A DNA stretch of 29,281 bases from the sequence record DRR723986_13540; one strand, 5' to 3'. A program made the translations under genes and the position numbers. Shown here piece by piece: positions 395 through 18,057 of this stretch (position 1 is the first letter of the stretch; each line of letters opens with the position of its first letter). The notes under the pieces are model-generated. The model was not told the DNA's origin. It did not search any database and worked only from the letters and a program-made list of their open reading frames with translations.

Positions 395-700
395 ATGGCA
401 ACAAACATTATTACCCCAGATGATTTAGAACAGTTCAAATGGGAACTACTTGCGGACATTAAAGAGTACCTGGATAAAAAAGTAGGAACAACGCCCGCAC
501 AAAAAGAAGAAGATTGGATCAAATCTCATCAGGTCCAAAGGTTACTTGGAATTTCTCCAGGCACATTACAAAACCTTAGAGTGAATGGCACTATCCCCTA
601 TTCAAAAGTTGGAGGAGTACTCTTCTATAAGAAGGCCGATATCCAGCACATCTTGGAACAAAATATGAGAAACAGTGATCAATCAATTAACAACCATTAA
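395..700 (+). CDS. HTH_17/excisionase-like DNA-binding protein
   Basis: WIKSHQVQRLLGISPGTLQNLRVNGTIPYSKVGGVLFY is the typical Bacteroidota mobile-element winged HTH. Confidence 0.9.
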   Translation: MATNIITPDDLEQFKWELLADIKEYLDKKVGTTPAQKEEDWIKSHQVQRLLGISPGTLQNLRVNGTIPYSKVGGVLFYKKADIQHILEQNMRNSDQSINNH

Positions 701-712
701 ATCAAAAATATT

Positions 713-967
713 ATGTCAAAACACTGCAGAATTAAACCCATTGAAACTCAAAACAATGTTATGAACATTAGAACAGAATGGATGAATGGATTAGAGGTAA
801 GCCACGCCTTAGGAATGAGCTACAAAACACTTTTACGTTTGCGCAAAAGTGGAGCTCTTCCATACAGTAAGGTCAATGGAAAAATCTATTTTAAAAGAGA
901 GGATATAGACAAATTGCTGGCTAACAGCTACCGCCAGTTTTACTGTCAATGTTGTAATAAAAAATAA
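713..967 (+). CDS. Second HTH_17/excisionase-like protein (start may be ATG 761); short Cys-rich tail CQCC
   Basis: WMNGLEVSHALGMSYKTLLRLRKSGALPYSKVNGKIYF. Confidence 0.85.
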   Translation: MSKHCRIKPIETQNNVMNIRTEWMNGLEVSHALGMSYKTLLRLRKSGALPYSKVNGKIYFKREDIDKLLANSYRQFYCQCCNKK

Positions 968-977
968 AGAATCTATT

Positions 978-1008
978 CCCCCTTTGGAGGGGGGGCGTTA
1001 GGGGGAGG
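978..1008. repeat. G/C-run hairpin (CCCCCT-ttgg-AGGGGG) followed by a second G-run; REP-like palindrome
   Basis: ccccctttggagggggggcgttagggggagg, between the HTH gene and the initiator gene. Confidence 0.5.
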
Positions 1009-1015
1009 ATATTCA

Positions 1016-1690
1016 GTGAAACAAACCGTAAATTACATAAAACACCTTGAATCATGGGCGGATAGAATCTGTTGTGATGACCGGCTAACGCCTCATCACA
1101 TCAGTCTGTACTATGCAATGTTTCACCAATGGAATTTAGCCAAATTCAAAAATCCGATATCCATTTGCAGGTCCGAGCTAATGCTCGCCTGCAAAATAGG
1201 GTCGGCCAACACTTATACAAAGTGTTTAAAACAGTTAGATATTTGGGGATATATTGAATACAAACCATCCTATAATCCAGCAAGAGGCAGCCTTGTGAAC
1301 CTGTACAATTTTGATCATAGTACTAGTAAAGGTAGTGATAAGGGTACTGATAAAGGTGCTGTAATAGCAGTGCGACCTTCATTAAACAGTATAAACAATA
1401 AAAACATTAAAACAGATAAAACAAGTAAGGTGAAAAACAAGTTTTCACCACCCTCCCTTGATGAAGTAAAAGAGTTTTTTCTTGATTTAAAAAGTACGGT
1501 AAGTGAAGCAGAAAATTTCCACAATTATTTTGAATCCAATGGCTGGTTAGTAGGTGGTAAAGCAAAAATGAAAAACTGGCAAGCTGCTGCACGAAATTGG
1601 ATTAAGAGATCCGGGAACTTCAATAAAAGCTCAACAGCGAAGGAAAGACTTCACACAAATGATGATAAAGAATATGCAACGCCTTTGTAA
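1016..1690 (+). CDS. Phage-type replication initiator / replisome-organiser-like protein
   Basis: N-terminal winged helix (HISLYYAMFHQWN...LDIWGYIEYKPS), repeat-containing linker, C-terminal FSPPSLDEV...FHNYFESNGW..G..KMKNWQAAARNW domain; directly upstream of a loader-like ATPase. Confidence 0.75.
   Translation: MKQTVNYIKHLESWADRICCDDRLTPHHISLYYAMFHQWNLAKFKNPISICRSELMLACKIGSANTYTKCLKQLDIWGYIEYKPSYNPARGSLVNLYNFDHSTSKGSDKGTDKGAVIAVRPSLNSINNKNIKTDKTSKVKNKFSPPSLDEVKEFFLDLKSTVSEAENFHNYFESNGWLVGGKAKMKNWQAAARNWIKRSGNFNKSSTAKERLHTNDDKEYATPL
1309..1440. other. Putative replication origin inside the initiator gene (12-bp iterons + A-rich tract)
   Basis: tactagtaaagg/tagtgataaggg/tactgataaagg/tgctgtaatagc at 1321-1368; A-rich stretch about 1381-1440. 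Confidence 0.55.
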
Positions 1691-1691
1691 A

Positions 1692-2339
1692 ATGAAAGAA
1701 ACCGTCAAGCCAAAAATAGAATGCCCGTATAGTATCGTGAATAATTATCGTCTCTATGATTTTAAAAAATCATGGGCTTATCTTGAATTTTTAGGTCGCG
1801 AAAAATTCGGCCCAAAATTCAAATTACAAAATGGTGATCGCGAAATCATTTACAAGTTATTCATCTACTTTATTGGTGATGAAGAAAATTGCAAACGGCA
1901 TGGACTGGAATTAGAAAAGGGCATTTTATTAAATGGTCCAGTTGGTTGTGGTAAAACATCATTAATGCATTTGATGAAAAAGTTTGCTCATCCAAATTTG
2001 TACGCGATTAAATCAACCAGAGAAATTGCTGCAGAATTCAATCAATTTGGTTATTCAGTAATTCTGAAATATGGTAAAACGCCAAAACGCATTTACTGCT
2101 TTGATGATTTAGGAGTAGAAAACAACATGAAGTATTTCGGTACAGAGTGCAACACCATTTCAGAAATACTCCTGCAGCGTTATGACTTAAATTTAATTGA
2201 TGGCACAGTAACTCACGCAACCACCAACCTCAACGCATCTGAATTAGAAGAGCTGTATGGCAACAGAGTAAGATCAAGAATGCGGGAACTCTTCAATCTC
2301 ATCTCATTCGATCGCTATGTAGGTGACAAGCGCCAATGA
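1692..2339 (+). CDS. P-loop ATPase, DnaC/IstB-like helicase-loader family (ATG 1692 preferred over 1659)
   Basis: Walker A GPVGCGKT, Walker B YCFDDLG, HATTNL, YGNRVRSRMRELFN. Confidence 0.85.
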   Translation: MKETVKPKIECPYSIVNNYRLYDFKKSWAYLEFLGREKFGPKFKLQNGDREIIYKLFIYFIGDEENCKRHGLELEKGILLNGPVGCGKTSLMHLMKKFAHPNLYAIKSTREIAAEFNQFGYSVILKYGKTPKRIYCFDDLGVENNMKYFGTECNTISEILLQRYDLNLIDGTVTHATTNLNASELEELYGNRVRSRMRELFNLISFDRYVGDKRQ

Positions 2340-2542: not shown

Positions 2543-3409
2543 ATGAAATTTGTTTCAACCTCAGCTCTCGCAAAGGAGAGAGATATTGATTCCAAAGAAT
2601 TATTTACGACCTTGAAAGAAAAAGGTTGGATTTACAAAAAAGATAATCAATGGCACTTGTCTAAAGAAGGAAGATTAGCCGGTGGTGATACTAAGTACAA
2701 TCCAAAATATGGTGAGTATGTTGTTTGGCCAATTGATTTAAATATTGAACAAAAAGTTGATTCACAATCCATGCTCAATGCTACTAAAATTGGTGAGCAT
2801 TTTAACATATCCAACAAAAAGGTAAATCTTTATTTATCGGATTTAGGATGGATAAGTAAAGAAAGGGGGGGGTGGGAACTTTCTAAAGCTGGAAAAAAGA
2901 ATGGAGGTCATCAAATGGAAGCTAAAAATGGCACTCCATATGCGCTTTGGGAAGAGTCGATCTTAAGCAATGTCCACTTCAAAAGAACAATTGATATCGG
3001 GGAAGGAAATTATGAAGAAGAAAAGGTTGAGACTAGCGAGAGTGAACAGTTTGATGATTTTCGAAAAAAATACCCTGCAGAAAAAAGAACTTCTGATGGC
3101 CATTATGTGAGAAGTAGAGCAGAACTTTTAATAGATAATTTCTTTTATAGAAACGGTATTGTTCACGCTTATGAAAAGAAGGTGAATATTGATGAGCCTA
3201 TGTATTGTGATTTTTATCTTCCTGAAAAGAAAATATATGTAGAATACTGGGGCTTAGAGGAAAATGCAGCATATGCAGAAAGAAAAAAAAGGAAACTTGA
3301 ATTGTATGCTAAATATGACATTAAATTGATAGAATTAAAAGATTCCGACCTTGAGAATCTGGATGAGATATTAGAAGCAAAACTTCGCAGATTAGGAATT
3401 ACAGTTTAG
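2543..3409 (+). CDS. Two antirepressor-like winged-helix repeats fused to a C-terminal PD-(D/E)xK-type nuclease domain
   Basis: Repeated STSALAK..L.EKGWI / NATKIGE..LSDLGWI units; RTSDGHYVRSRAELLIDNFF...YE...YCDFYLP...YVEYWG. Confidence 0.7.
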   Translation: MKFVSTSALAKERDIDSKELFTTLKEKGWIYKKDNQWHLSKEGRLAGGDTKYNPKYGEYVVWPIDLNIEQKVDSQSMLNATKIGEHFNISNKKVNLYLSDLGWISKERGGWELSKAGKKNGGHQMEAKNGTPYALWEESILSNVHFKRTIDIGEGNYEEEKVETSESEQFDDFRKKYPAEKRTSDGHYVRSRAELLIDNFFYRNGIVHAYEKKVNIDEPMYCDFYLPEKKIYVEYWGLEENAAYAERKKRKLELYAKYDIKLIELKDSDLENLDEILEAKLRRLGITV

Positions 3410-3414
3410 AATTT

Positions 3415-6216
3415 ATGAGTAGTTATAATAAATACCCAAGAGGATCAGAATGGAGAAGATGGGACTTACATATACATACTCCAGAAACTAATAAAAACGA
3501 TAATTTCGTAGGTAGCTCTCCTCAAGAAAAATGGGAGAAATATGTTACTGATATTAATTCCTACTCTGATGATATTGCGGTTGTAGGTATAACGGATTAT
3601 TTTTCAAGTAAAAATTACTTTCAATTCAAACAATTGATCGCTGAAGGTAAAATCACTAAAAAATTTAAGCTAGTATTACCAAATGTTGAGTTAAGAATTT
3701 CTCCTGTAACAGGTTCATCTACACCAATCAATATTCATTGTTTGTTTAATCCAAAAATAGACAATGAACTCAATGATAGATTTTTTGCTAAACTCAAATT
3801 CAATTATTCTGGCAGCGATTATTCCGCAACAGAAAGCGAGTTGATTAGGTTAGGAAAAACGTATGAGAATAACGATTCTCTCTCTGATTCTATTGCTTAT
3901 AGTAAAGGTGTAAATCAGTACGTAATTGAATTCGGATCTTTACAAGAATTATTTAACAAAGATTCAGACCTCAGAGAAAACACCATAATTGTAGTGTCGA
4001 ATAGTAGTTCAGATGGTGCTTCTGGGTTAAGTCATTCTGAATTGTTTGATGGAACGACTTCCCAACTAGATGCTACGAGAAGAAGTATATATCAACTAAC
4101 AGATGCAATATTTTCAGCAAGACCCAAAGATAGGTTGTATTTTATAGGTGAAGGTCCAGATACGATTGAAACTGTTATCAGAAAATGTGGTGGTTTGAAA
4201 CCGTGCTTTCATGGTTGTGATGCTCACTCAAATGATAGGATTTTTAATCCTGATGAAAATCGTTATTGCTGGATTAAATCAGACCCAACTTTTGAAGGTT
4301 TAAAGCAGGTTTTGTACGAGCCTGTAGATCGCGTATTTATTGGTGAAAATTATCCAGATGAAAAAGTGCTATATCAGGTTATAGATAGTGTGAAGTTCGA
4401 AGACTCGGAATTTCAAACCACTGAAATCGTTTTAAATTCGAATTTCACTGCAATAATTGGAGGTAAGTCAACAGGGAAGTCTCTGTTGCTAAAAAATATA
4501 GCAAAAACTATTGATCCAGTTGAATATAGTCGCAGAATTGAAGCAGCGAGCTTAATTGAAAAGAGAGATATTGATGGTATGGTTGTCAAATGGAAGGATG
4601 GCCAAATCAATAACCTTGGATCTGGCTCTGATGTTGAAAAAAGAATTATTTACATTCCACAATCCTATCTGAATCGAGTCGTAGATGTAGATAAAAGTAA
4701 TTCAGACATTGATAATATTATCAAGGATATTCTCTTACAAGATTCTCAATTTCAAGAATGGTATGATGCGTTGAAATTGACAGAAAGACAAATGGGCTTC
4801 AAAATCGACACATTGATATCTTCAATGTTTGAAGCTCTAAGTTCATTTTATACTTCTTCAAACGATTTGAAAAAAATTGGAGATGAGAAGGGCGTTAAAA
4901 GTCAAATTTCTAAAATCAATGGTGAAATAAAATTGATACAAGCAAAATTGAAGTTGACACCAGAAGAAATTAGTCTATTCGAAAAGAAAGTTGAATTGAT
5001 GTCAAAGATGAAACTTAAAATTGATAACTATTCGAAAGATATCAGTGTTCTTCAAGTTGCAGCGGACATAAGAATAAAGCTCTATGATCCATTAACACAT
5101 GAATTAAAAAATGAAGATTATAATCAGAAACTTCGGGATTTAGCAAAAGCCAAAGCTCAAGTTTTTTCTTTGGATTGGCAATCTGAAATTAAACAGCTAA
5201 TTGAACAGTATCAAAAAGAAATTGAGGAGGTTAAACAAAATTTGGTTAAAGAGGAGAAAGGAATTTTTGAGCTCAAACAGAAAATAGAAAGTCAAAAAAG
5301 TATTCAAGAGAAGTATAAAGCTCTAAAAGTTGAGAAAGAAAAAGAACAAAAACTTGAACAGTATAAAAAGGCCAAAGAAGAGCAGAAGAAAATTGTTAAG
5401 GATTGTGTGAACGAATTGATTGAATTGATAGGTAATTTTTACACGATTTATCTAGAAGCGAAGGACAAAATAAATAAGGATGGTTTTGATGATGAGCTCA
5501 AATTTGATATTGAAACCATTTTTTCGAGAAAACAATTTCAAGAAAATTTTGAAAGAGCTTTTTTTGATGGAAGGTCAATGAGAAGTGAAGAGTATGATTT
5601 TATCACAGAAATCAGTTTTGTAAATAAGGAAGATTTTAAAGAAAAAATAAAAAAAATCATATACGCTATTTTGAATGATAAACTTCCTGTTAAAGAAGGT
5701 TTCAGTAAAAAGGATATTATCTCGAGTCTAATAAAAAATTGGTTTTACCATAAATTTAAGGTCGAATACTACGGAGATCAGTTAAATGATATGTCCCCTG
5801 GTAAAAAATCATTTGTTTTGTTGAGGCTATTGATAGATTTGGATAATAGTAAGTGCCCTATTTTAATTGATCAACCGGAAGATGATCTTGATAATCGGTC
5901 CATTTATTATGAAGTTGTCAAATTTTTAAGAAGTAAAAAGAGTGAGCGCCAAATAATTATCGCTACACACAATCCTAATTTAGTTTTAGGTGCAGATTCA
6001 GAGCTAATTATAGTTGCTAATCAAGAGGGAAAAGATTCAAAGAACTTGAGTTCTAAGTTTGAATATATATCAGGAAGCATTGAGCATAGTTTTAGAGACG
6101 GTTCGGTGCCTGAAACTCTATATAAACAAGGAGTGCAAGAACATATATGTGATATCCTTGAAGGTGGAAGGGAAGCTTTTATCAAACGAAAAAACAAATA
6201 TCAGTTCAAAGGGTAG
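3415..6216 (+). CDS. Ppl/TrlF-like PHP phosphoesterase-SMC/ABC ATPase fusion, probable anti-phage protein
   Basis: PHP motifs GSEWRRWDLHIHTP, GITDY, NVEL, NIH, GCDAH, WIKSDPTFEGL; Walker A GGKSTGKS; coiled coil; signature MSPGKK; Walker B/D-loop LIDQPEDDLDN; H-loop ATHNPN. Confidence 0.88.
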   Translation: MSSYNKYPRGSEWRRWDLHIHTPETNKNDNFVGSSPQEKWEKYVTDINSYSDDIAVVGITDYFSSKNYFQFKQLIAEGKITKKFKLVLPNVELRISPVTGSSTPINIHCLFNPKIDNELNDRFFAKLKFNYSGSDYSATESELIRLGKTYENNDSLSDSIAYSKGVNQYVIEFGSLQELFNKDSDLRENTIIVVSNSSSDGASGLSHSELFDGTTSQLDATRRSIYQLTDAIFSARPKDRLYFIGEGPDTIETVIRKCGGLKPCFHGCDAHSNDRIFNPDENRYCWIKSDPTFEGLKQVLYEPVDRVFIGENYPDEKVLYQVIDSVKFEDSEFQTTEIVLNSNFTAIIGGKSTGKSLLLKNIAKTIDPVEYSRRIEAASLIEKRDIDGMVVKWKDGQINNLGSGSDVEKRIIYIPQSYLNRVVDVDKSNSDIDNIIKDILLQDSQFQEWYDALKLTERQMGFKIDTLISSMFEALSSFYTSSNDLKKIGDEKGVKSQISKINGEIKLIQAKLKLTPEEISLFEKKVELMSKMKLKIDNYSKDISVLQVAADIRIKLYDPLTHELKNEDYNQKLRDLAKAKAQVFSLDWQSEIKQLIEQYQKEIEEVKQNLVKEEKGIFELKQKIESQKSIQEKYKALKVEKEKEQKLEQYKKAKEEQKKIVKDCVNELIELIGNFYTIYLEAKDKINKDGFDDELKFDIETIFSRKQFQENFERAFFDGRSMRSEEYDFITEISFVNKEDFKEKIKKIIYAILNDKLPVKEGFSKKDIISSLIKNWFYHKFKVEYYGDQLNDMSPGKKSFVLLRLLIDLDNSKCPILIDQPEDDLDNRSIYYEVVKFLRSKKSERQIIIATHNPNLVLGADSELIIVANQEGKDSKNLSSKFEYISGSIEHSFRDGSVPETLYKQGVQEHICDILEGGREAFIKRKNKYQFKG

Positions 6217-6240
6217 GATTAGATTCAAATTATAAAAGAC

Positions 6241-6840
6241 AGGTTATAAGGTGTTCGTCAATCACTGCATTTTGTTTCGCAAACCATAATCAAAAGGGTG
6301 TATAAACTCATTTCATTCGCCCTTGTGCTTAATGCTTTGCTTCACACATTCCGTTCAATCCTCACCCGGTGCTGTACTGCTCCCGAAATAGTATTTGTAA
6401 GGTTTTGAGAAAACAAAACCCACAAAAACATATTCGGGATCACCGCACCTTAATATTTGTGCTCGCCTGCGGGTCGCTGCGGGCTATTCGGGCTGCTGCG
6501 CCATGCTGGCTTGCCTGAAAAGTCACAGTTTTAGAATCCAATTTGTCAGTAAGCTGCGCAAGATTTGCTTAGCACACTTCTCAAACCCACACAAGTATAG
6601 CTCCTTCAATCACCTTCATTTCTTTGCGGCTCATTCAGTTGCAAAACTTGTCTTTCCCCAGCTGCGTCAAAAACTCCGCCAGCCCTGCCCCGAAGGTTCG
6701 GGGTTGGTGCCACAACATTCATTCTTCATGTTACTCATGTCACCACCCTTGCTCCACTCGCAGGGCGCCTACGCTAAAGCTTCAGCGCCAGCGTACGGCT
6801 CGCGCACACAGGCCAACCCTCGCTCAAGGCTGTATAACCT
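6241..6840. ncRNA. Candidate large structured non-coding RNA or ssDNA element (600 bp)
   Basis: About 49% GC by hand count in AT-rich surroundings; ends aggttata/tataacct are complementary; at least 7 internal stems; no credible ORF. Confidence 0.5.
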
Positions 6841-6871
6841 TTGGACAATAAATTGAATTGAAGTACTTTTG
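6840..6871 (+). promoter_or_regulatory. Bacteroidota housekeeping promoter TTTG-N20-TAnnTTTG for merTP
   Basis: tttg 6840-6843, tacttttg 6864-6871, ATG at 6877. Confidence 0.6.
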
Positions 6872-6876
6872 TAGTA

Positions 6877-7464
6877 ATGGCGAACAAGGAAAATAAAGGG
6901 TTATTGGGCTTAGGCATCTTAACTGCTGTTGCTTCTTCTTTGTGTTGTATTACACCTGTTTTAGCAATGTTGGCTGGGTCAAGTGGAATGGCATCTAGCT
7001 TTTCTTGGATTGAACCAGCCCGACCATATTTGATTGCATCCACATTTCTGGTGCTTGGGTTGGCTTGGTGGCTAAAACTAAGGCCAGTTAAAACAGATGA
7101 CTGTGGATGTGAAGTACCGCAGAAATCTTCTTTCTTTCAATCTAAGAAGTTTTTATTGATAGTTACAATACTTGCGCTTGTAATGACAGCTTTTCCTTAC
7201 TATTCACATATATTCTATTCTTCTAATCAAACTGTTGAGGTAGCTGATGAGAATTTGGAACGAACGACCATTATGATTGAGGGCATGACTTGTGATGCTT
7301 GTCAAAAACATGTTGATCATGCCATTTTAGAATTAAAAGGAATTAGTTCAGTTGAAACATCATACGAACTTGGGCAAACTACTGTAAAGTTTGATAAGTC
7401 TCAAACGACACATAAGGATATAGTAGCAGCAATTAATAGTACAGGTTACAATGCAGTCGAGTAA
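6877..7464 (+). CDS. merTP: Mercuric transport protein MerT-MerP(HMA) fusion
   Basis: ASSLCCITP in TM1, WIEPARPY, DCGC loop, C-terminal HMA GMTCDAC. Confidence 0.9.
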   Translation: MANKENKGLLGLGILTAVASSLCCITPVLAMLAGSSGMASSFSWIEPARPYLIASTFLVLGLAWWLKLRPVKTDDCGCEVPQKSSFFQSKKFLLIVTILALVMTAFPYYSHIFYSSNQTVEVADENLERTTIMIEGMTCDACQKHVDHAILELKGISSVETSYELGQTTVKFDKSQTTHKDIVAAINSTGYNAVE

Positions 7465-7684
7465 AGAAACCATATTAGAATCAAAGATCACTTGTCCTGA
7501 ATGTGGTTATTCAAAAGTTGAGACCATGCCTACAGATGCGTGTTCTTGGTTTTATGAATGTGAAAATTGTCACAAGGTACTCAAGCCTCTTGAAGGTGAT
7601 TGTTGTGTTTACTGTAGTTATGGAACAGTTCCTTGTCCTCCAATTCAAGAGTCAGGTTCATGTTCGTCTTCTTGTTGCTCTTAA
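7451..7684 (+). CDS. GDCCVxC domain-containing Cys-rich protein
   Basis: ITCPECG...MPTDAC..FYECENC...LKPLEGDCCVYCSYGTVPCPPIQ; overlaps the merTP stop. Confidence 0.9.
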   Translation: MQSSKETILESKITCPECGYSKVETMPTDACSWFYECENCHKVLKPLEGDCCVYCSYGTVPCPPIQESGSCSSSCCS

Positions 7685-7907: not shown

Positions 7908-8123
7908 TTAATGCTCTTTTGAGCGGTTAAACAATTTGTTTTTAAGCTTCTTCCAAGCCCATTTACACAGTTGAGTAATTACAAAACTGGCAATTGCTCC
8001 AACAGCTCCCAGTACAATTGTCCTAGTGATATCTGTTGTTTCCAAATTGGGAAGAATTGCCAGTAGTGTTCCACCGATTGTTCCAGCAACTGTATCATTT
8101 TCTATGTGATGCAATCCTGCCAT
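7908..8123 (-). CDS. Small membrane protein (holin-like or coat-protein-like)
   Basis: 71 aa; hydrophobic segments GTIGGTLLAIL and IVLGAVGAIASFVITQL; strongly basic C-terminus. Confidence 0.7.
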   Translation of the reverse strand: MAGLHHIENDTVAGTIGGTLLAILPNLETTDITRTIVLGAVGAIASFVITQLCKWAWKKLKNKLFNRSKEH

Positions 8124-8132
8124 ACAATTAGA

Positions 8133-8384
8133 TTACTCTTCACAATCAGCATCATCTGCCATTGCCGCTTGACTCATTGCTGTAGCCACAGTTCCGCCTA
8201 CAATTAAGTATCCACCAATGGTAGAAACTAATGCGGGCAGTGCAATTGGTGCAGCAACAATAGTTGTTCCTGCAGCTGCTACAACTAAGCCAATGATGCG
8301 CAACTTCTTAAAGAATGGCGGAGTTTCAACTCCACATCTCTTGAAGTAAGATTTCAATTTGTCTTTAAATCGTTCTTTCTTCAT
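8133..8384 (-). CDS. Small two-TM membrane protein (holin-like)
   Basis: Basic N-terminus, ETPPFFKKLRIIGL, Ala/Gly-rich hydrophobic hairpin; 8-9 bp from its neighbours. Confidence 0.7.
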   Translation of the reverse strand: MKKERFKDKLKSYFKRCGVETPPFFKKLRIIGLVVAAAGTTIVAAPIALPALVSTIGGYLIVGGTVATAMSQAAMADDADCEE

Positions 8385-8392
8385 ACTTAAGA

Positions 8393-9142
8393 TTATTGTA
8401 CATCAACAATAGCTAACGCATTGAATGCTCCATTTTTGAGTGTGTATTGATCACCATTCACTTCTTGGTAAAATTCAACCATCAATAGGTATAAATCTGT
8501 TCCAGATCCTGCAGGTGTTCCAGCTGGAGTCAATAGAACGTTCGTTGAGGTCGCATCAATCGGAAGATTGACAGCATTACTCTCTTGAAGGTCGTAATCA
8601 CCAGTTGCAAAATCAACTTTCACCCAACCACCTCTCAAAGTGATGTGAGTTGCTCCTGGTGCATTGTTTAAATCATTGACCGGAATCAAGTTATTTAAAG
8701 TGATTACACCAGTACCCAAATCGACTATGTAAGGATTGAATAAAATAGAACCCAAAATCGCTTTGTCATTCATATTGAAGTTTTTCAAAAGTGCCTTTGC
8801 TGACGCACCGGCAATTGCAACTCCAACATTTCTTTCTCCTCTAACACTTGTTGTGTCCAAATTTTTAATTTGAGACATCAACTTTGTCATTCTAGAAGTC
8901 ACACGATTATCAGAAGCATTCTGCATCATGGTACGAATTGCATCTCTAAGTAATTTCCCAGATTTGGCAGAACCACCAAATTCAGAACCGTTTTCTCTCG
9001 TTCTCACGAAAGCGGGATCTTTTTTGATACGCTCTCCATCAACTCCGCCTTTTTCACGGGCTAAGTATCCGTCCTTACTTTTGTAGAAGGATAAATCTCC
9101 GATTTTCCCTTCCAATTTGATTATGCCTTTCTGTCTTGCCAT
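8393..9142 (-). CDS. Bacteroidota mobile-element protein of unknown function (starts MARQKGIIKLEGKIG), 249 aa
   Basis: ATG at 9142 preferred over 9187; basic N-terminal half, beta-rich C-terminal half (FYQEVNGDQYTLKNG). Confidence 0.8.
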   Translation of the reverse strand: MARQKGIIKLEGKIGDLSFYKSKDGYLAREKGGVDGERIKKDPAFVRTRENGSEFGGSAKSGKLLRDAIRTMMQNASDNRVTSRMTKLMSQIKNLDTTSVRGERNVGVAIAGASAKALLKNFNMNDKAILGSILFNPYIVDLGTGVITLNNLIPVNDLNNAPGATHITLRGGWVKVDFATGDYDLQESNAVNLPIDATSTNVLLTPAGTPAGSGTDLYLLMVEFYQEVNGDQYTLKNGAFNALAIVDVQ

Positions 9143-9396
9143 AATATTTGTTGTTGTTAGTTTTAGGTCCTTCACCTGGTTGACCATTTCACCAGTTTAT
9201 GTGCCATAGCTTGCTCGAGTTAATTAATTGCAAAGGCACACGCGCAAAGCAAATATTCACAAATGGCAACAGGAGTCAAAATCTTGGCTTCCGCTTCATA
9301 AACTATCTGCCGTTTTGTGTTAAAATGACCTATTGAAAAGGGTAGATGAAGTATTAATTTTGTATTGAACGAGTATAGAAAGTGTATAGATAAAGT

Positions 9397-9585
9397 ATGA
9401 AGAGAGTTGTGATATATCCAAAAGACATTATGATCATCACCGGTAAGAGTGAAAGATACTCTCGTTACCTCATCCAACGCATCAAGAAGCATTTAAAGAA
9501 AGAACATTACCAAGTTGTTTCCATTTCAGAGTTCTGCGCTTATATGGGCTTAGATGAAGCATCAATATCAGCTTGTATTCTTTGA
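9397..9585 (+). CDS. Small HTH-like DNA-binding protein divergent from the three-gene module
   Basis: IYPKDIMIITGKSERYSRYLIQRIK...VSISEFCAYMGL. Confidence 0.75.
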   Translation: MKRVVIYPKDIMIITGKSERYSRYLIQRIKKHLKKEHYQVVSISEFCAYMGLDEASISACIL

Positions 9586-9744
9586 TGCAATTTGTTGCTA
9601 AATGATATATGAATCAGTATCTTTAGTGTCATACGTTCTTTAAATCACAACAACTAAAAACAAGATTTCTGCAAGCAAATTAGCAAGCAGTATTTTCAAA
9701 TTAAGATAACAACCTCATTAAGAGCATAATATAATTGGCGCGGT

Positions 9745-9763
9745 AATCCTGCCGAGGTCACCA
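9745..9763 (+). other. Attachment site (attR): isolated copy of a tRNA 3' end, likely tRNA-Arg(ACG)
   Basis: aatcctgccgaggtcacca = part of T-loop, T-stem 3' strand, acceptor strand, CCA; upstream sequence cannot form the rest of a tRNA. Isotype assigned from recalled Bacteroidota tRNA-Arg ends. Confidence 0.8.
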
Positions 9764-9770
9764 AGAAAGC

Positions 9771-9806
9771 AAAACTCCTTCAGAGAATCTGAGGGAGTTT
9801 TTGTTT
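9771..9806 (+). terminator. Intrinsic terminator, probably the original tRNA terminator
   Basis: aaactccttcaga-gaa-tctgagggagttt followed by a T-tract. Confidence 0.85.
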
Positions 9807-9856
9807 GTTCAAAGACGTAATGAATTTATTTAATTGAGAATTTGAACAAACAAAAA
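9798..9856. repeat. Perfect 16-bp inverted repeat with 27-bp spacer
   Basis: tttttgtttgttcaaa (9798-9813) / tttgaacaaacaaaaa (9841-9856). Confidence 0.7.
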
Positions 9857-9894
9857 CCAAAATTGAAAATTTTGAGTTTTGCTTTCGGAATTCG

Positions 9895-9979
9895 GAGCTC
9901 AAAGGAACTTAAATCCTCGAAACGGATTTCCCTCAGCTACGCACCAATATTGCCAAAAACTGTATTTAACATGATTAAA
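9895..9979 (+). repeat. Intergenic repeat family A, copy 1
   Basis: gagctcaaaggaactt-aaatcctcgaaacggatttccctcagctacgcaccaatattg... matches 12303-12400. Confidence 0.85.
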
Positions 9980-10456
9980 ATTCTCGTTCCAATTGTATTA
10001 CTACTGAGCCTGAACATCTGCGCACAAGCTCCAGTTAATGTCTGGAAACATAAACCTGCAGTGGGATCCGTTTATACTTTTCAAGGATTTCAATACTGTG
10101 CTGGATACAGAGCTATACAAAATATCAATCTGAAATCTGAAGGCTATGGTTTCAGCCATTCAATAACTGCACTGGTACATTATACGCATAGCCGTAAGCT
10201 CATTGGACTCAGTGTTGAGTATGGTCACGCAATTGAGGGAATGGTCGGTGGACGGATGAAACTAGACTATCATGGCAACTCCCAAGGGACTCGTTTCAGT
10301 TGTACTCCTGCTATTAGCATTGGATACTTAGAAAGAATTCATTTTTCATTTGGGTATCGCCTTTATTTTCATGATCACTGGGCTCCGAATCCAGAAAAGC
10401 CAGTTTGGGGGCTACCTGAAGTAGCTGTAGCTTTCGTCATCCCTCCGAATAAATAG
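9971..10456 (+). CDS. Hypothetical exported protein, possibly a small outer-membrane beta-barrel (start ATG 9971)
   Basis: Signal peptide MIKILVPIVLLLSLNICAQ; amphipathic beta-strand pattern; the upstream ORF extension runs through repeat DNA. Confidence 0.6.
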   Translation: MIKILVPIVLLLSLNICAQAPVNVWKHKPAVGSVYTFQGFQYCAGYRAIQNINLKSEGYGFSHSITALVHYTHSRKLIGLSVEYGHAIEGMVGGRMKLDYHGNSQGTRFSCTPAISIGYLERIHFSFGYRLYFHDHWAPNPEKPVWGLPEVAVAFVIPPNK

Positions 10457-10458
10457 CA

Positions 10459-10472
10459 CAGCTACTGCGGAG
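10459..10472 (+). repeat. REP-like family B, half copy
   Basis: cagctactgcggag immediately after the stop codon. Confidence 0.6.
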
Positions 10473-10672
10473 AAAATTTGATGAATTTTGCTCAAGGAAT
10501 TCAAATGATCATGAACAGATTCAACATTTGCGAATTGCACAAATTATTATCTTTTGTTGTGAATTTCAATTCTCAATATGCGCCTGGCAACTATAATTTT
10601 GTTTTAAACAATAAAAGTAGATCATAGGGCTAAGACTTTTATAGCTTTGTTCTGCTTTTGAAAACTGAACAA

Positions 10673-11695
10673 ATGAAATCGCCCCAAACGGTAAAAACAG
10701 AACAAGAGAAGACTTGGATGGAAATTGTGAAAGATTACAATAAATCTGACGCAAAAAAAAGCTGGTGGCAAGTTGCCAATTCATTTATCCCCTATTTTGG
10801 ACTTTGGGTATTGATGTATTACTCCTTGGCATGGTCATATTGGATCACTTTAGGCCTTTCTATTATAGCAGCTGGTTTTTTGCTTAGAATTTTCATCATT
10901 TTTCATGACTGCGGTCATGGATCATTTTTCAAATCTCAAAAATTAGCCAGAGTTGTTGGTATTATTGCTGCCGGATTTATTTTTACTCCTTATCATAAAT
11001 GGCATATGGATCATAAAATCCATCACAGCACCATGGGGAATTTAGATAATAAAGGAGTTGGAGATGTACGAACATTCACCATTGAAGAATACCGACAATT
11101 TACTCCGATTCAAAAATTGTTGTATCGAATTTACAGACATCCAATTACTCTTTTTATTGTAGGCCCTCTCCTACTCTTTTTAGTGATCTTCAGATGGCCA
11201 CCTGCCTCAAGGAGTTTGAAAGAAAAAGTTTACACACATATTACAAGTGTTGTTTTGGCGCTGGCCGTTTATCTCATGCACTTATGGATAGGCATCATAC
11301 CTTTTATTATGATTCAGCTGCCAATTCTATTTGTGGCGGCAGGTCATGGAGCCTGGTTATTTTATGTGCAACATCAATATGAAGATGTACAATGGAGAAG
11401 ACAAAAAGATTGGGACTATAAGGAAATGGCCTTTGAGGGAAGTTCTTATTTGAAACTTCCGAGAATTTTACAATGGTTTACGGGTAATGTTGGATTTCAC
11501 CAAATTCATCACCTTAGCCCGAGAATGCCTAATTATAATCTTGAAAAGTGTTATAATGAAAACGAATCTATGCAAGCGGACACACCAATTACATGGCTAA
11601 AAGCCCTGAAATGCATTAAATACAGACTATGGGATGAAGAGCGTAGTCGACTGGTTAGCTTTAGAGATTTAAAACGAGAAGGTATCCCGTATTAA
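10673..11695 (+). CDS. des: Membrane fatty acid desaturase, Bacillus Des-like (ATG 10673 or TTG 10658)
   Basis: His boxes HDCGH, HKIHH, HQIHH; WLFYVQHQYE; GSSYLKLP..LQWFTGNVGFH. Confidence 0.92.
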   Translation: MKSPQTVKTEQEKTWMEIVKDYNKSDAKKSWWQVANSFIPYFGLWVLMYYSLAWSYWITLGLSIIAAGFLLRIFIIFHDCGHGSFFKSQKLARVVGIIAAGFIFTPYHKWHMDHKIHHSTMGNLDNKGVGDVRTFTIEEYRQFTPIQKLLYRIYRHPITLFIVGPLLLFLVIFRWPPASRSLKEKVYTHITSVVLALAVYLMHLWIGIIPFIMIQLPILFVAAGHGAWLFYVQHQYEDVQWRRQKDWDYKEMAFEGSSYLKLPRILQWFTGNVGFHQIHHLSPRMPNYNLEKCYNENESMQADTPITWLKALKCIKYRLWDEERSRLVSFRDLKREGIPY

Positions 11696-14687: not shown

Positions 14688-14771
14688 TTAAATATAGACT
14701 GTGAGATGAAGAGCGTAGTCGACTGGTTAGTTTTAGAGATTTAAAACGAGACGGCATCCCGTATTAAAATT
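14688..14771 (+). pseudogene. 84-bp direct repeat, copy 2: orphaned 3' end of a des allele
   Basis: Reads KYRL*DEERSRLVSFRDLKRDGIPY* versus KYRLWDEERSRLVSFRDLKREGIPY*. Confidence 0.9.
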
Positions 14772-14823
14772 GAAAATTCAGTCTCTAAATTGGCTATCAC
14801 AATCAGAATCAGTAGATTTGGAT

Positions 14824-17553
14824 ATGCTCAAATACCTGGGAATATTTTTCGTGTTGATCATCCAAAATGGATACAGTCAGGACTATTTAGACAAGGAAGT
14901 ATATCTAGTTGACTCAATTGATTATGAATTGATTACACCAGAATATAAGCAGCTACTCAATTACTATATCCAATATCATCACGATACGGATGATGAAGTA
15001 TACAAGATCAGCGTGATTCACGAAATTGTTAGGAATTGCTGGGATTTTAATATTTGGCCAAAGTATAATGAGTGGGTGTATAACAAAGCAACTGAAAAGT
15101 TAAGCGAAGATTTATCAGATTCTTTGCGCAACATTTATGGTTTGTTCAAAGCAGGATCAGTTTATTATAGAGGTTGGGGACATTATTACAACACCAATTA
15201 CGATTTGTCAAGAGCCACCTTTGAACAAAGTCGCGATTTATATCTTGAATATGGTGATTCTGCAGGCGCAGCAAGCTCCATTGACAATATAGGCTCAGTC
15301 TACAGCACCCAAGGCGAAATGTCAAAAGCCTTAGAATATCATGTTGAAGGATTAAAAATTAGAGAGCGGCTTCAAGATACTTTGGGCCTTGGAGCATCCT
15401 ATAATGCAATTGGAATCATTCACATGACGCATGGAGATTACAACCGTGCCATTGCTGACTTTGAAAAAGCAATTGGTTTTCATACGCATGTTCAATGGTG
15501 GTCTGGTTTATCGAACGAATACAGTAATCTTGGGGCACTAGAATCAAAACTCGGGCATCATGATGTCGCTTTAGAATATCACCTGGAAAGTTATCGTATT
15601 AAAGAACATCTCGGAGACAAACAAGGCATGGGTATATCATTGACCAACATTGCCAGCATCTCATTGCTTAATGGAGATACCGCCACCGCAATTGAATATC
15701 AAAACTATGCCCTAGAGCTTTCAAAAGAATTGGGTGACAATAGAGGAATTGCAGGCTCACTAAATCAATTGGGGTTTATCCACCTTTTAAAAGATGAGTA
15801 CACAGAAGGATTCGAGCTTTTGAAACAATCTTTAACAATCAGTAACGAAATTGGATCGCAACTTGACAAAAGAAATGCCTTAGTCAGCTTGCTTAAAGGT
15901 TACTTATGGAAAGGAGATTTTAAAGAGGCTGAAAAGTATTTGCAAGAACTTGTGGAGATGAGAAAAAGGGACATTAAAACCAATTTCGCCATTTTATCGG
16001 AACAAGAAAAATCCATGTACTTTAAAACAATGGCTGAAGAGTATGACAATTTATACGCTTATGGCAATTTGACTTATGCTTCTAACCCAGCAATCACGAC
16101 TACCCTTTATGACAATACCCTCATGTTAAAAGGATTGTTGTTGAAATCATCAACTGCAATGCGTGAAGCAATACTTACAAGTAAAGAACCGGATTTAATT
16201 GATCAATATCATGAATGGATAGCCATCAAAGTTCAAATAGCTGATGCCTACGCAAAAGGATTTGATTCAGATAGTCTGGAAAAAGCTGCAAATGTTTTAG
16301 AAGCAAGTCTGGTGAAAAAATCTGCCGCATTTGACGATTTCTATATTGGGGATCCAACATCTTGGGAGGACATTAAAAACAAGCTAGAGAAAAATGAGAC
16401 GGCCATAGAATTCATTCGTTTTCCAAAAGATTTGATGAATGAAGATTCTGAAGTTATTTATGCTGCACTTACCATCCAGGCTGACTCAAAACAACCTAAA
16501 TTAATTCAACTGTGCACAGAAAAAGATCTTGAAAAAGTTCTTGGAAAAATCACATCAACTAGTATCAGTCATGTTAATGAAGTTTATTCAAACAATGCTT
16601 TAACCGAATTGATTTGGAATCCACTCAAAACTGAACTTCAAGGAATGGACAGAGTTTTCTTCTCTCCTGTTGGATTACTTCACAAGATTGCTTTTTCAGC
16701 GATAAGAACTGGTGAAACCGGGCTAGTACGTGATCAGCTAGAATTGGTGCAATTAAACAGTACAGAGCAAATGCTATCTGATAACAAGGTACAAATCAAT
16801 GATAATACCGTTGCCTCTTTATTTGGTGGTGTTAAGTACAATACCGACTCTTCTGAACATGTTATTTGGAATTATTTACCTGGAACATTGGCCGAAATCG
16901 ACTCAATCAAATCAACTATTGATGCTAAAGTAACAGTGAATTATCTCAATGGACTTGACGCGACAGAGGAACGGTTTAAACAGTTAGCAGAGGAAAGCAC
17001 CATACTGCACATTGCATCACATGGCTTCTTTTATCCTGACCCTGAATTGGTTAGACAAGAAACACAAGTAGAGTTGGATCAAGATGAGCTGGCATTTAGA
17101 GGCGGATCATCAAATTATGGGATTTGGAATTTTGTAAACAATGAGAATCCACTAATGCGATCAGGAATTGCTCTGGCTGCTGCAAATGACGCTTGGCAAC
17201 GAAATGCCTTTTCTGAGGGAGAAGATGGTGTATTATCAGCTCAGGAGGTATCCAATCTAAATATGACAACAACAGATCTGGTGGTGTTATCTGCATGTGA
17301 AACAGGATTAGGAGATATTCGTGGATCTGAAGGAGTTTATGGCTTACAACGAGCTTTCAAAATGGCTGGGGTAAACTACTTAATCATGAGTTTATGGCAA
17401 GTACCGGACAAAGAAACTGCCGAATTTATGACCCTATTCTATCAGCATTTGGTTGAAAGTAAGGATGTACGAATTGCCTTTAACAAAACACAATCGGTTT
17501 TGAGCGCACTTTATGAACCGTATTATTGGGCCGCGTTTATCTTGGTTGAGTAA
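14824..17553 (+). CDS. Exported TPR + CHAT (caspase-like) protease; start probably ATG 14824
   Basis: Signal peptide MLKYLGIFFVLIIQNGYSQ; TPRs (NIGSVY..QG...KALEYH); catalytic ILHIASHGFF and VVLSACETGLG; SLWQVPD; PYYWAAF. Confidence 0.92.
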   Translation: MLKYLGIFFVLIIQNGYSQDYLDKEVYLVDSIDYELITPEYKQLLNYYIQYHHDTDDEVYKISVIHEIVRNCWDFNIWPKYNEWVYNKATEKLSEDLSDSLRNIYGLFKAGSVYYRGWGHYYNTNYDLSRATFEQSRDLYLEYGDSAGAASSIDNIGSVYSTQGEMSKALEYHVEGLKIRERLQDTLGLGASYNAIGIIHMTHGDYNRAIADFEKAIGFHTHVQWWSGLSNEYSNLGALESKLGHHDVALEYHLESYRIKEHLGDKQGMGISLTNIASISLLNGDTATAIEYQNYALELSKELGDNRGIAGSLNQLGFIHLLKDEYTEGFELLKQSLTISNEIGSQLDKRNALVSLLKGYLWKGDFKEAEKYLQELVEMRKRDIKTNFAILSEQEKSMYFKTMAEEYDNLYAYGNLTYASNPAITTTLYDNTLMLKGLLLKSSTAMREAILTSKEPDLIDQYHEWIAIKVQIADAYAKGFDSDSLEKAANVLEASLVKKSAAFDDFYIGDPTSWEDIKNKLEKNETAIEFIRFPKDLMNEDSEVIYAALTIQADSKQPKLIQLCTEKDLEKVLGKITSTSISHVNEVYSNNALTELIWNPLKTELQGMDRVFFSPVGLLHKIAFSAIRTGETGLVRDQLELVQLNSTEQMLSDNKVQINDNTVASLFGGVKYNTDSSEHVIWNYLPGTLAEIDSIKSTIDAKVTVNYLNGLDATEERFKQLAEESTILHIASHGFFYPDPELVRQETQVELDQDELAFRGGSSNYGIWNFVNNENPLMRSGIALAAANDAWQRNAFSEGEDGVLSAQEVSNLNMTTTDLVVLSACETGLGDIRGSEGVYGLQRAFKMAGVNYLIMSLWQVPDKETAEFMTLFYQHLVESKDVRIAFNKTQSVLSALYEPYYWAAFILVE

Positions 17554-17559
17554 TCTTTT

Positions 17560-18057
17560 CTAAAGAGCGGCTAAAGCCGCATCATAATCTGGCTCATCAA
17601 CTGTCTCCGAAACTTGCTCAGAGTGAACCACCTTTCCTGTATTATCAATCACTATGATGCATCTAGAATTTAAGCCAGCCAATGGACCATCTAAGATCTC
17701 TAATTGATAATCTTTTCCGAATTGACCTGTTTTAAAGTCAGATAACATGATCACATTTTCTATCCCTTCTGCCCCACAAAATCTATTTTGAGCAAATGGT
17801 AAATCACGAGAGATGCACAAAACTTTTGTCGATCCTATACTTGCCGCTTTTTCGTTGAATTTACGAACTGATGTTGCGCAGGTTCCTGTATCAATACTTG
17901 GAAAAATATTTAAAATCAATTGCTGCCCTTTAAAATCTGAAAGAGTTTTTGTAGACAAATCTGTTGCTACTAATTCAAAGTTTTTAGCCTGTTCACCTGT
18001 CTTTGGAATTTCGCCCAATGTGTTAACAGGGTTTCCTTTTAATGTAATTTTTGCCAT
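17560..18057 (-). CDS. tpx: Thiol peroxidase (atypical 2-Cys peroxiredoxin)
   Basis: LNIFPSIDTGTCATSVRKFN, ISRDLPFAQNRFCGAEG, EPDYDAALAAL. Confidence 0.97.
   Translation of the reverse strand: MAKITLKGNPVNTLGEIPKTGEQAKNFELVATDLSTKTLSDFKGQQLILNIFPSIDTGTCATSVRKFNEKAASIGSTKVLCISRDLPFAQNRFCGAEGIENVIMLSDFKTGQFGKDYQLEILDGPLAGLNSRCIIVIDNTGKVVHSEQVSETVDEPDYDAALAAL

Follow-up and report, generated by a model that had tools for sequence, protein, structure and literature searches.

Location and Ends of the Element

We analyzed a stretch of 29,281 nucleotides from the sequence record DRR723986_13540 (the window). In its first third, a pair of HTH_17 genes and the genes for a DnaD-like protein and a DnaC-like helicase loader are followed by variable cargo, a GC-rich block, and further cargo, and a module of four genes (p71, p83, p249, and p90) converges on the block from the other side. 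The block, at positions 6240–6842 (603 nt), is the subject of this report. It is a conserved, structured non-coding element, most likely a new large RNA, and forms part of the backbone of a plasmid-like Bacteroidota mobile island that carries defense and metal-resistance genes.

A preliminary description, made from the sequence alone, had noted a block of about 49% GC in AT-rich surroundings, with the pairing ends aggttata (6241–6248) and tataacct (6833–6840). Both observations hold. The two ends lie where they had been placed, with the element starting one base (c) before the first, and the GC content is 48.6% (120 G and 176 C in 609 nt) versus about 30% in the flanks. In 300-nt windows, the GC fraction is 0.457–0.503 over 6300–6899, versus 0.28–0.34 over 5250–6149 and 0.35–0.40 over 7050–7499. 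What had been described as a terminal inverted repeat proves to be the closing helix (P1), with covarying sides: the left strand caggttataagg (6240–6251) pairs with the right strand ctgtataacctt (6830–6841), and the core of the helix covaries between copies, the outermost C-G pair being lost in the window, where a T replaces the G. Members of the family measure approximately 450–1200 nt (median 729). The extent of the whole element rests on the sharp ends of its homologues and on covariation in 40 copies, and strand counts make the minus strand the likelier candidate for the folded one.

A Family of Non-Coding Homologues

Homologues are found in Flavobacteriales genomes. Among 61 relatives of the nearest genome match, 15 gave matches, and seven places were near full length at 75–92% identity, with unrelated flanks and sharp ends. 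A 20-mer was found in eight stretches of one-genome-per-species contigs, mostly of Crocinitomicaceae or of Flavobacteriales metagenome-assembled genomes. An invariant 25-mer was present in at least 120 metagenome stretches, 80 loci of which make up our metagenome set; the environments represented are marine, sediment, sludge, and lake. The same 25-mer had no match in 2.9 million viral contigs. In an even sample across the phylum, BLASTN gave matches in 3 of 301 genomes, one of them through a short insert alone, and BLASTN of the block against plasmids found nothing; a divergent plasmid copy was later found by profile search. Because profile searches and inspection bring up copies that are far more divergent, counts from sequence searches underestimate the family.

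Genomes carry one to three copies (full or divergent), each between the cargo region and the p71-p83-p249 module. This distribution bears on the reading of the block as a miniature inverted-repeat transposable element (MITE), a non-autonomous transposon. The termini caggttata/tataacct(t) do form an inverted repeat and covary as transposon ends could, direct-repeat-like motifs stand beside many copies, and the first ~70 nt of the element occur as isolated fragments at 89–91% identity in two genomes (G001:C42:6119–6187 and G016:C14:92799–92870). A MITE would, however, be expected to spread. The preliminary description had named many copies with target-site duplications as the mark of one, and we found a low copy number, an unchanging position and orientation within the island, and no duplication in the window (flanks ...ttataaaaga and ttggacaata...). 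The motif flanking other copies is the same word at different loci, unlike random duplications, and long-range covariation in the interior is not expected of a MITE.

A decayed protein-coding gene would account for the plus-strand open frames, which are long (median 0.63 of the element length). These frames are explained by the composition of the plus strand, which is C+T rich and hence poor in stop codons. They are not conserved, and indels do not keep to multiples of three: pairwise indel runs sorted by length modulo three number 39 (remainder 0), 99 (remainder 1), and 38 (remainder 2). The two open reading frames (ORFs) over the block have no Pfam match, and the translations are of low complexity and not alignable beyond the blocks conserved in the DNA. 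The element is non-coding, and we regard a MITE or a decayed gene as highly improbable.

The preliminary description could not match the block to a named Rfam family, and neither could we. With the Rfam 15 models, the whole window gave no match at the gathering score (including ROOL, GOLLD, OLE, HEARO, group I and II introns, RNase P, tmRNA, and 6S). Over 6100–7000, with E-values up to 10, the matches were three miRNA hairpin models and RAGATH-18 at 16.7–18.7 bits versus gathering scores of 44.9–95, which is chance level. In 18 homologous loci searched at E-values up to 0.1, no match fell within an element; the single one, to Leu_leader, was at 208–271 of locus L103, outside the element of that locus (1461–2416). 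Full-text searches of the literature, with passages of PMC11109978 among the material, turned up no description of the element, which is not proof that it is unpublished.

Covariation and Architecture of the Fold

Covariation was counted in an alignment of 40 full copies (A4), using the pairs that RNAalifold predicts on both strands, that is, by Watson-Crick complementarity alone. This strand-symmetric structure has 95 pairs in 20 helices, with the closing helix outside these 95, and 91.4% of its 3670 cells are paired. Compensatory changes, on both sides of a pair, were observed in 44 of the 95 pairs (320 cells), versus a mean of 29.3 pairs and 98.4 cells in shuffles, none of which (0/500) reached the observed values. 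In controls with the partners slid by one to three columns, 9–19 pairs (22–57 cells) changed in this way and 37–46% of the cells were paired. A search for homologues and covariation had been proposed with the preliminary description as a check of the idea of a folded molecule; both turned out to be present.

The closing helix gives a further view of the same process. At least six variants of its core were found (TTATA/TATAA, TAAA/TTTA, AAAA/TTTT, TTAA/TTAA, TAAT/ATTA, and AAATA/TATTT), and it also covaries outward (ACG/CGT, AAG/CTT, GAG/CTC, and AAT/ATT). By pattern match, the ends are exactly complementary in 48 of the 67 copies with complete flanks. Among the misses are the window, because of its terminal mismatch, and copies with a 5' motif outside the pattern. 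The closing helix, the hairpin domains, and the long-range helices are shown to be maintained by compensatory changes.

From left to right, a hairpin, CAAAAGGG...CCCTTGTG (6293–6325, A4 helices 4–5), has 11 pairs, four changed on both sides, with 97% of cells paired. It is followed by a long nested hairpin (6368–6449, A4 helices 7–8), in which 9 of 13 pairs have changed on both sides; here, GGTGC/GCACC alternates with GCAGC/GCTGC, and CTCCCGAA/TTCGGGA with CACCCC/GGGGTG. The near-invariant block GCTCGCCTGCGGGTCGCTGCGGGCTATTCGGGCTG (6461–6495) is identical or nearly so in every aligned copy and was the source of the metagenome search pattern. A putative gctcgc/gcgggc stem lies in this never-varying block. 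A 27-nt insert (6496–6522) is shared by the window and G001 alone; in alignments A1, A2, and A4, no further copy has it. The 5' half of a long-range module (GGGCTG..TCACAGTTTT in plus reading, 6490–6534) pairs with its 3' half, CAAAAACTCCGCCAGCCC (6668–6685), as GGGCTG..GTTTTT with AAAAAC..CAGCCC. This assignment is based on covariation (A4 helices 12–13; 16 pairs, three changed on both sides, 91–100% of cells paired). Between the two halves, a domain is closed by ACAAGT/ACTTGT (6591–6651, A4 helix 15; eight pairs, three changed on both sides). A short hairpin follows at 6686–6705 (A4 helix 18), reading CCCCGAAGGTTCGGGG in the window and C(T/C)GTAAAC(A/G)G in most copies, and both of its pairs covary (2/2). 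Finally, the block CCACCCTTGCTCCACTCGCAG (6743–6763) is conserved across the alignments. Most of the stems first proposed (aagggtg/cgccctt, the long arm at 6368–6449, acaagt/acttgt, and ccccga/tcgggg) sit in helices conserved in 40 homologues; the exceptions are gctcgc/gcgggc, in the invariant block, and ggcgc/gcgcc (6764–6789), which is no family stem, as it falls in a short insert present in the window and G001 copies alone.

Divergent members of the family have a second, permuted copy of the long-range module. Together with the long-range helices, this points to a compact multi-domain fold. The fold is also distinct energetically, with RNA z-scores of −3.28 for the plus and −4.83 for the minus strand, and 0 of 20 dinucleotide shuffles folded as well on either strand. 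The words TTCAT/CATTC are visible in the unpaired linkers of many copies.

Several features lie outside the family core. The palindromic, repeat-like insert at 6765–6803, which contains the ggcgc/gcgcc stem, has separate matches at 87–96% identity in G011 (four), G041 (three), G035 (two), and G272 (two), and looks like a small dispersed hairpin repeat. Some copies are preceded by roughly 100 nt in which one of the internal hairpins is partly duplicated. The copy at 8774–11400 of locus L039 is split by a gene at 9256–10764, with about 65 nt of the element duplicated at both junctions. The idea of a group II intron was dropped here, the 502-aa ORF that splits the copy being an IS4-like DDE transposase and not a reverse transcriptase.

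The Folded Strand

The preliminary description had taken the G-T pairs as favoring folding of the plus strand; on both pair counts and fold z-scores, the minus strand is favored instead. On the 95 symmetric pairs, 89 cells are AC/CA, the form that a minus-strand G-U pair takes here, and 37 are GU/UG. These minus- and plus-type wobbles are spread over 28 versus 15 pairs, or 53 versus 24 pair-by-cluster occurrences (20 clusters at 85% identity). RNAalifold energies are lower for the minus strand (−233.2 versus −215.3, and −82.5 versus −78.1 in another comparison), and the RNA centroid comes closer to the minimum free energy on the minus (−204 versus −208) than on the plus strand (−129 versus −171). 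The CCG..CAG variants of helix 18 can form a G-U pair only if the minus strand folds. RNAalifold predicts pairing of the conserved block at 6743–6763 with the near-invariant block for the minus strand only, by pairs that never vary. Moreover, the minus strand is G+A rich, which makes its loops and internal loops purine-rich, and purine-rich loops are typical of known structured RNAs. A conserved 4 × 4 loop, for example, offers G-A, C-G, and G-U on the minus strand and is a set of pyrimidine mismatches if read on the plus strand. Given that one strand folds, the element is probably read from the minus strand, as p249 is.

Flanking Words and Transcription Signals

In the subfamily of the window, conservation ends at the closing helix. 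In many other copies, a CCCACCGCAC-like word, absent from the window copy, stands 4–25 nt outside the closing helix on both sides. Of 47 copies, 25 have CGCAC or CCCACA in the 30 nt upstream, 22 have it in the 40 nt downstream, and 12 have it on both sides, versus 1 of 47 in each control window. These words may be protein-binding repeats or the trace of a site-specific junction. Loci with the word on both sides include L048, L065, L098, L046, and L053.

Sigma-70-like sites numbered 3 versus 6.5 expected, in a scan not tuned to Bacteroidota promoters. The consensus of the latter is of the type TAnnTTTG, and by eye no such motif was seen in conserved positions. In L029, L031, and L034, the p71 gene is followed by two conserved hairpins, one of them terminator-like (AAAGGAT...ATCCTTT plus a T run), which lie approximately 120–190 nt to the right of the element. 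The 22 sequencing runs listed for 5900–7200 are contig sets, apparently of DNA, and none is of RNA; the best held 0.33 of the sampled words.

The block might also be a cis-acting insulator or processing structure between convergent units, an untranslated plus-strand tail of the cargo operon that stabilizes or terminates transcripts and has no function in trans. This would suit a block that always lies at the convergence point, with upstream cargo that is usually co-oriented and ends 1–70 nt before it, and a terminator-like hairpin was scored on the plus strand inside the element, at 6623–6645. The element is, however, far more elaborate and conserved than termination requires, with invariant blocks of 35 nt; the strand evidence points to the minus strand, and in L033 the gene upstream of the element is divergent, not co-oriented. 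We consider such an insulator improbable.

The Island Backbone and Its Cargo

The left part of the backbone (395–2339, plus strand) was assigned by Pfam, NCBIfam, and PHROGs. It consists of the two HTH_17 genes, the DnaD-like gene (1016–1690), and the DnaC-like gene (1659–2339), and the same genes in the same order are found in L031, L033, L034, L038, L200, L202, and L203 and in the plasmid L164. All genome loci with enough sequence share one order: a gene of about 164 aa on the opposite strand, two HTH_17 (excisionase-like) genes, and the DnaD-like and DnaC-like genes; variable co-oriented cargo, the element, and optional further cargo then follow, and p71, p83, p249, and p90 converge from the other side. 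In the window, this right-hand module, conserved beside the element, occupies 7908–9492 on the minus strand (p90, 9220–9492; p249, 8393–9142; p83, 8133–8384; p71, 7908–8123).

The cargo of the window was recognized by profile matches on both sides of the element, on the plus strand. Upstream (2543–6216) are an ANT/KilAC-domain protein, which has weak HNH-like PHROG matches besides, and a TrlF-family AAA-like ATPase of 933 aa (NCBIfam NF045780, E-value 8.2e-175). Downstream (6877–7684), a MerT-HMA fusion gene begins 35 nt past the element and overlaps a GDCCVxC-domain gene; in the window, no merA or regulator was seen beside this pair. The same MerT-HMA gene is found 3' of the element in 4 of the 80 metagenome loci. 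Elsewhere, the upstream cargo includes Eco57I-type restriction-modification with UvrD, AbiE, Thoeris, prokaryotic Argonaute (pAgo), a reverse transcriptase, phospholipase D (PLD) nucleases, and a ubiquitin-like system, and the downstream cargo is HipA, a cation diffusion facilitator (CDF) with a TonB-dependent receptor, or nothing. The cargo between the element and the replication genes ranges in length from 0.3 kb to over 7 kb.

In the ORFs that we scanned, from the window island and from related loci (12 for Rep and relaxase), we detected neither an integrase nor a relaxase or rolling-circle Rep. A tRNA or tmRNA target site was considered and rejected, the window and 10 of the 11 loci scanned having no tRNA. 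In L036, ARAGORN finds a 90-nt tRNA-Phe(gaa) on the opposite strand (9649–9738), directly upstream of a copy that is without the usual 3' end. In L038, an RteC-family gene (17114–17956) adjoins the HTH_17 gene of the island and hints at a link to the regulation of Bacteroidetes conjugative transposons. The island of L034 is set between copper-oxidase genes and CzcCBA-like metal-efflux genes. Outside the island, the window encodes a TPR-CHAT protein (14770–17553), an AAA_16/TPR STAND-like protein (18090–21023), and a 1496-aa ORF without a Pfam match (24718–29208).

The p249 Protein and the Plasmid Form

A test for co-occurrence of the block with the gene at 8393–9142 had been suggested at the outset. 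The 249-aa ORF lies within 5 kb of the element in 10 of the 11 genome loci with enough downstream sequence, the exception being L040, with DUF6266 and DUF6943 genes in that place. In the metagenome set, 10 of the 80 loci have it in the 2-kb flank, in each case on the downstream side and encoded by the opposite strand. The reverse test used 20 p249 loci chosen from 51 places, leaving out G001, G045, G434, and lower-scoring or contig-end places. Profiles detected the element in six of these 20 (one weakly) and inspection added two divergent copies (L208 and L214), giving 8 of 20.

None of p90, p249, p83, and p71 matched Pfam, NCBIfam, or PHROG. At E ≤ 0.001, p249 matches 5679 proteins in the database, with 68–94% identity among the best 120, and it is present in 34 of 301 class-sampled genomes, a tally that includes G434. 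Its predicted structure (predicted local distance difference test score, pLDDT, 76.7) has a disordered basic N-terminus (residues 1–33), a helical part, and an immunoglobulin-like (Ig-like) sandwich. This model had no Foldseek match at E ≤ 0.001 in PDB or BFVD, and the best VIA-align Z was 5.0, to generic Ig-like sandwich domains. In the Atlas, p249 falls in unnamed clusters only, the nearest named family being DUF6266 at 0.75. As modeled, the fold yields no functional assignment. Judged by sequence, p71 and p83 resemble small membrane proteins of two segments.

The circular plasmid p1 of Marivirga sp. BKB1-2 (25,320 bp) has the same backbone as the window island: HTH_17 (54% identical), DnaD-like (42%), and fragmented DnaC-like genes, followed by cargo. 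A GC-rich unannotated gap then holds a divergent copy of the element (near 16.8–17.5 kb of NZ_CP129969.1; nhmmer E-value 4.8e-12; GC 0.46–0.54 versus about 0.31 in the flanks), and homologues of p71, p83, and p249 (44%) follow in the same order beyond it. From the shared backbone it follows that either the window island corresponds to a plasmid-like replicon in integrated form or the plasmid is the free form of the island. The GC skew of this 25-kb plasmid has no clear switch at the element. In addition, seven plasmids of one strain of Fulvitalea axinellae (NZ_AP025317, AP025319, AP025321–AP025324, and AP025326) carry one p249 homologue each (36–41%). In two of the three loci examined, p249 is near rep, and in one of these also near parAB; on pFA12, p249 lies between a replication-initiation gene and parAB. 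No element was detected by two profiles in the three loci. The Fulvitalea plasmids suggest that p249 is a plasmid maintenance gene.

A replicon of this sort leads to an alternative in which the molecule that folds is single-stranded DNA (ssDNA): the element would be a single-strand initiation or primosome-assembly site, or a single-strand origin or part of an origin, serving the DnaD-like and DnaC-like loaders and recognized once its strand has been unwound or displaced. The backbone does encode these two proteins and does exist as a circular plasmid; no conserved promoter or terminator was found with the element, and in the window subfamily conservation stops at the closing helix. The iteron-like flanking words (CGCAC/CCCACA) could be initiator-binding repeats, and the scarcity of both wobble types would also be expected. 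Yet the element, with 450–1200 nt, many domains, and long-range helices, exceeds the known sites of about 70–400 nt, no relaxase or rolling-circle Rep was among the island ORFs scanned, and variable cargo parts the element from the replication genes. With DNA parameters, moreover, the fold z-scores are −2.41 (minus) and −2.97, less distinct from shuffles than the minus-strand RNA (−4.83), and the centroids are poorly defined. We hold an ssDNA signal to be rather unlikely, though less so than the insulator.

Interpretation

A large structured RNA best fits the size and domain number of the element, as well as its invariant blocks, its purine-rich loops, and the covariation of its long-range helices. 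We infer, at slightly better than even odds, that it represents a new class of such RNAs with a role in element maintenance. The preliminary description had proposed either a large non-coding RNA or a folded ssDNA signal of a mobile element; the conserved, folded, single-stranded-type, strongly covarying nature of the block and its place in a mobile backbone bear this out in part, and the preference for the plus strand is not supported.

On our reading, the block would be the gene for a large multi-domain non-coding RNA that is a backbone component of a plasmid-like, also chromosomally integrated element, the folded molecule being RNA rather than DNA. The RNA could arise by read-through, or start at a promoter that departs from the consensus, before being trimmed back to the closing helix. 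It would act in the maintenance or replication of the element, possibly as a protein-binding scaffold, for example for p249, through the repeated, purine-rich GAAUGA-type linkers and the two conserved internal-loop modules. Alternatively, it could serve as a G-rich pre-primer or as a replication regulator. In full, this would be an as yet undescribed class of RNA of 0.5–1.2 kb, an obligatory backbone component in a widely distributed Bacteroidota family of plasmid-like integrative elements that move defense and metal-resistance genes, working with p249 in replication or maintenance as a ribonucleoprotein scaffold or as a G-rich pre-primer or regulator. We put the probability of this whole reading at roughly 0.45.

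Several observations count against it. No conserved promoter or terminator was found on either strand by scan and inspection, and in the window and its close relatives cargo genes directly abut the closing helix on both sides. In L029, L031, and L034, a terminator-like hairpin of the p71 operon itself precedes the element by about 120 nt, which makes simple read-through from p249 doubtful. The association with p249 is not strict in the reverse direction, since p249 is without a detectable element in 12 of the 20 p249 loci and in all three Fulvitalea plasmid loci examined. The wobble asymmetry is moderate (a ratio of approximately 2.2–2.4), other mismatches (225 cells) are commoner than either type of wobble, and the lower minimum free energy of the minus strand in 40 of 40 copies is largely an effect of composition. 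Finally, the counted structure was derived from the same sequences, and some of the excess that it shows over the slid controls is therefore built in.

Comparison with Known Systems

To our knowledge, only about a dozen classes of bacterial structured RNAs longer than 500 nt are known, each of which has given new biochemistry or stays an open problem. The element described here, which is widespread in metagenomes, belongs to a mobile backbone by which anti-phage systems (TrlF, restriction-modification, pAgo, Thoeris, and AbiE) and resistance to mercury or other metals move among Bacteroidota. Its role, whether as RNA scaffold, primer, or DNA signal, would show how a little-studied replicon family is maintained and would offer a handle for vectors in Flavobacteriia and Cytophagia. 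With Marivirga sp. BKB1-2 and its p1 there is a named cultivated carrier of a circular form, which makes the question directly testable.

MITEs resemble the element in being non-coding, a few hundred bases long, and bounded by inverted termini, and differ from it in that the element is of low copy number and fixed context, has no target-site duplication in the window, and covaries extensively in its interior. Single-strand origins and primosome-assembly sites are likewise strand-specific folds on replicons with helicase-loading genes and need no promoter of their own. The element is several times larger than these sites and multi-domain, and no rolling-circle Rep or relaxase was among the ORFs scanned near it.

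The RNA II pre-primer of ColE1, like single-strand origins a possible analogy for how the element works, is a folded transcript of about 550 nt, a G-rich part of which hybridizes to the template at the origin. Like it, the element is part of a plasmid backbone, of similar length, with one strand strongly rich in purines and in G, and its fold appears essential, judging from conservation. In contrast to ColE1, the replicon of the element encodes its own DnaD-like and DnaC-like proteins, and no RNA I-like antisense partner, promoter, or origin was identified for the element.

GOLLD and ROOL, the closest to the element in kind, are large structured RNAs whose role is not established and which are found on prophages and other mobile DNA. 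The element differs from them in having no match to their models or to other Rfam 15 models, in lying in plasmid-like islands of Bacteroidota and not in prophages (no match to the invariant block in the 2.9 million viral contigs), and in having no tRNA cluster beside it (0 tRNAs in 11 of the 12 sources scanned). What the element shares with GOLLD and ROOL is a size of 0.5–1 kb, a covarying fold of many domains, a location on mobile DNA, and the form of a GC-rich intergenic block.

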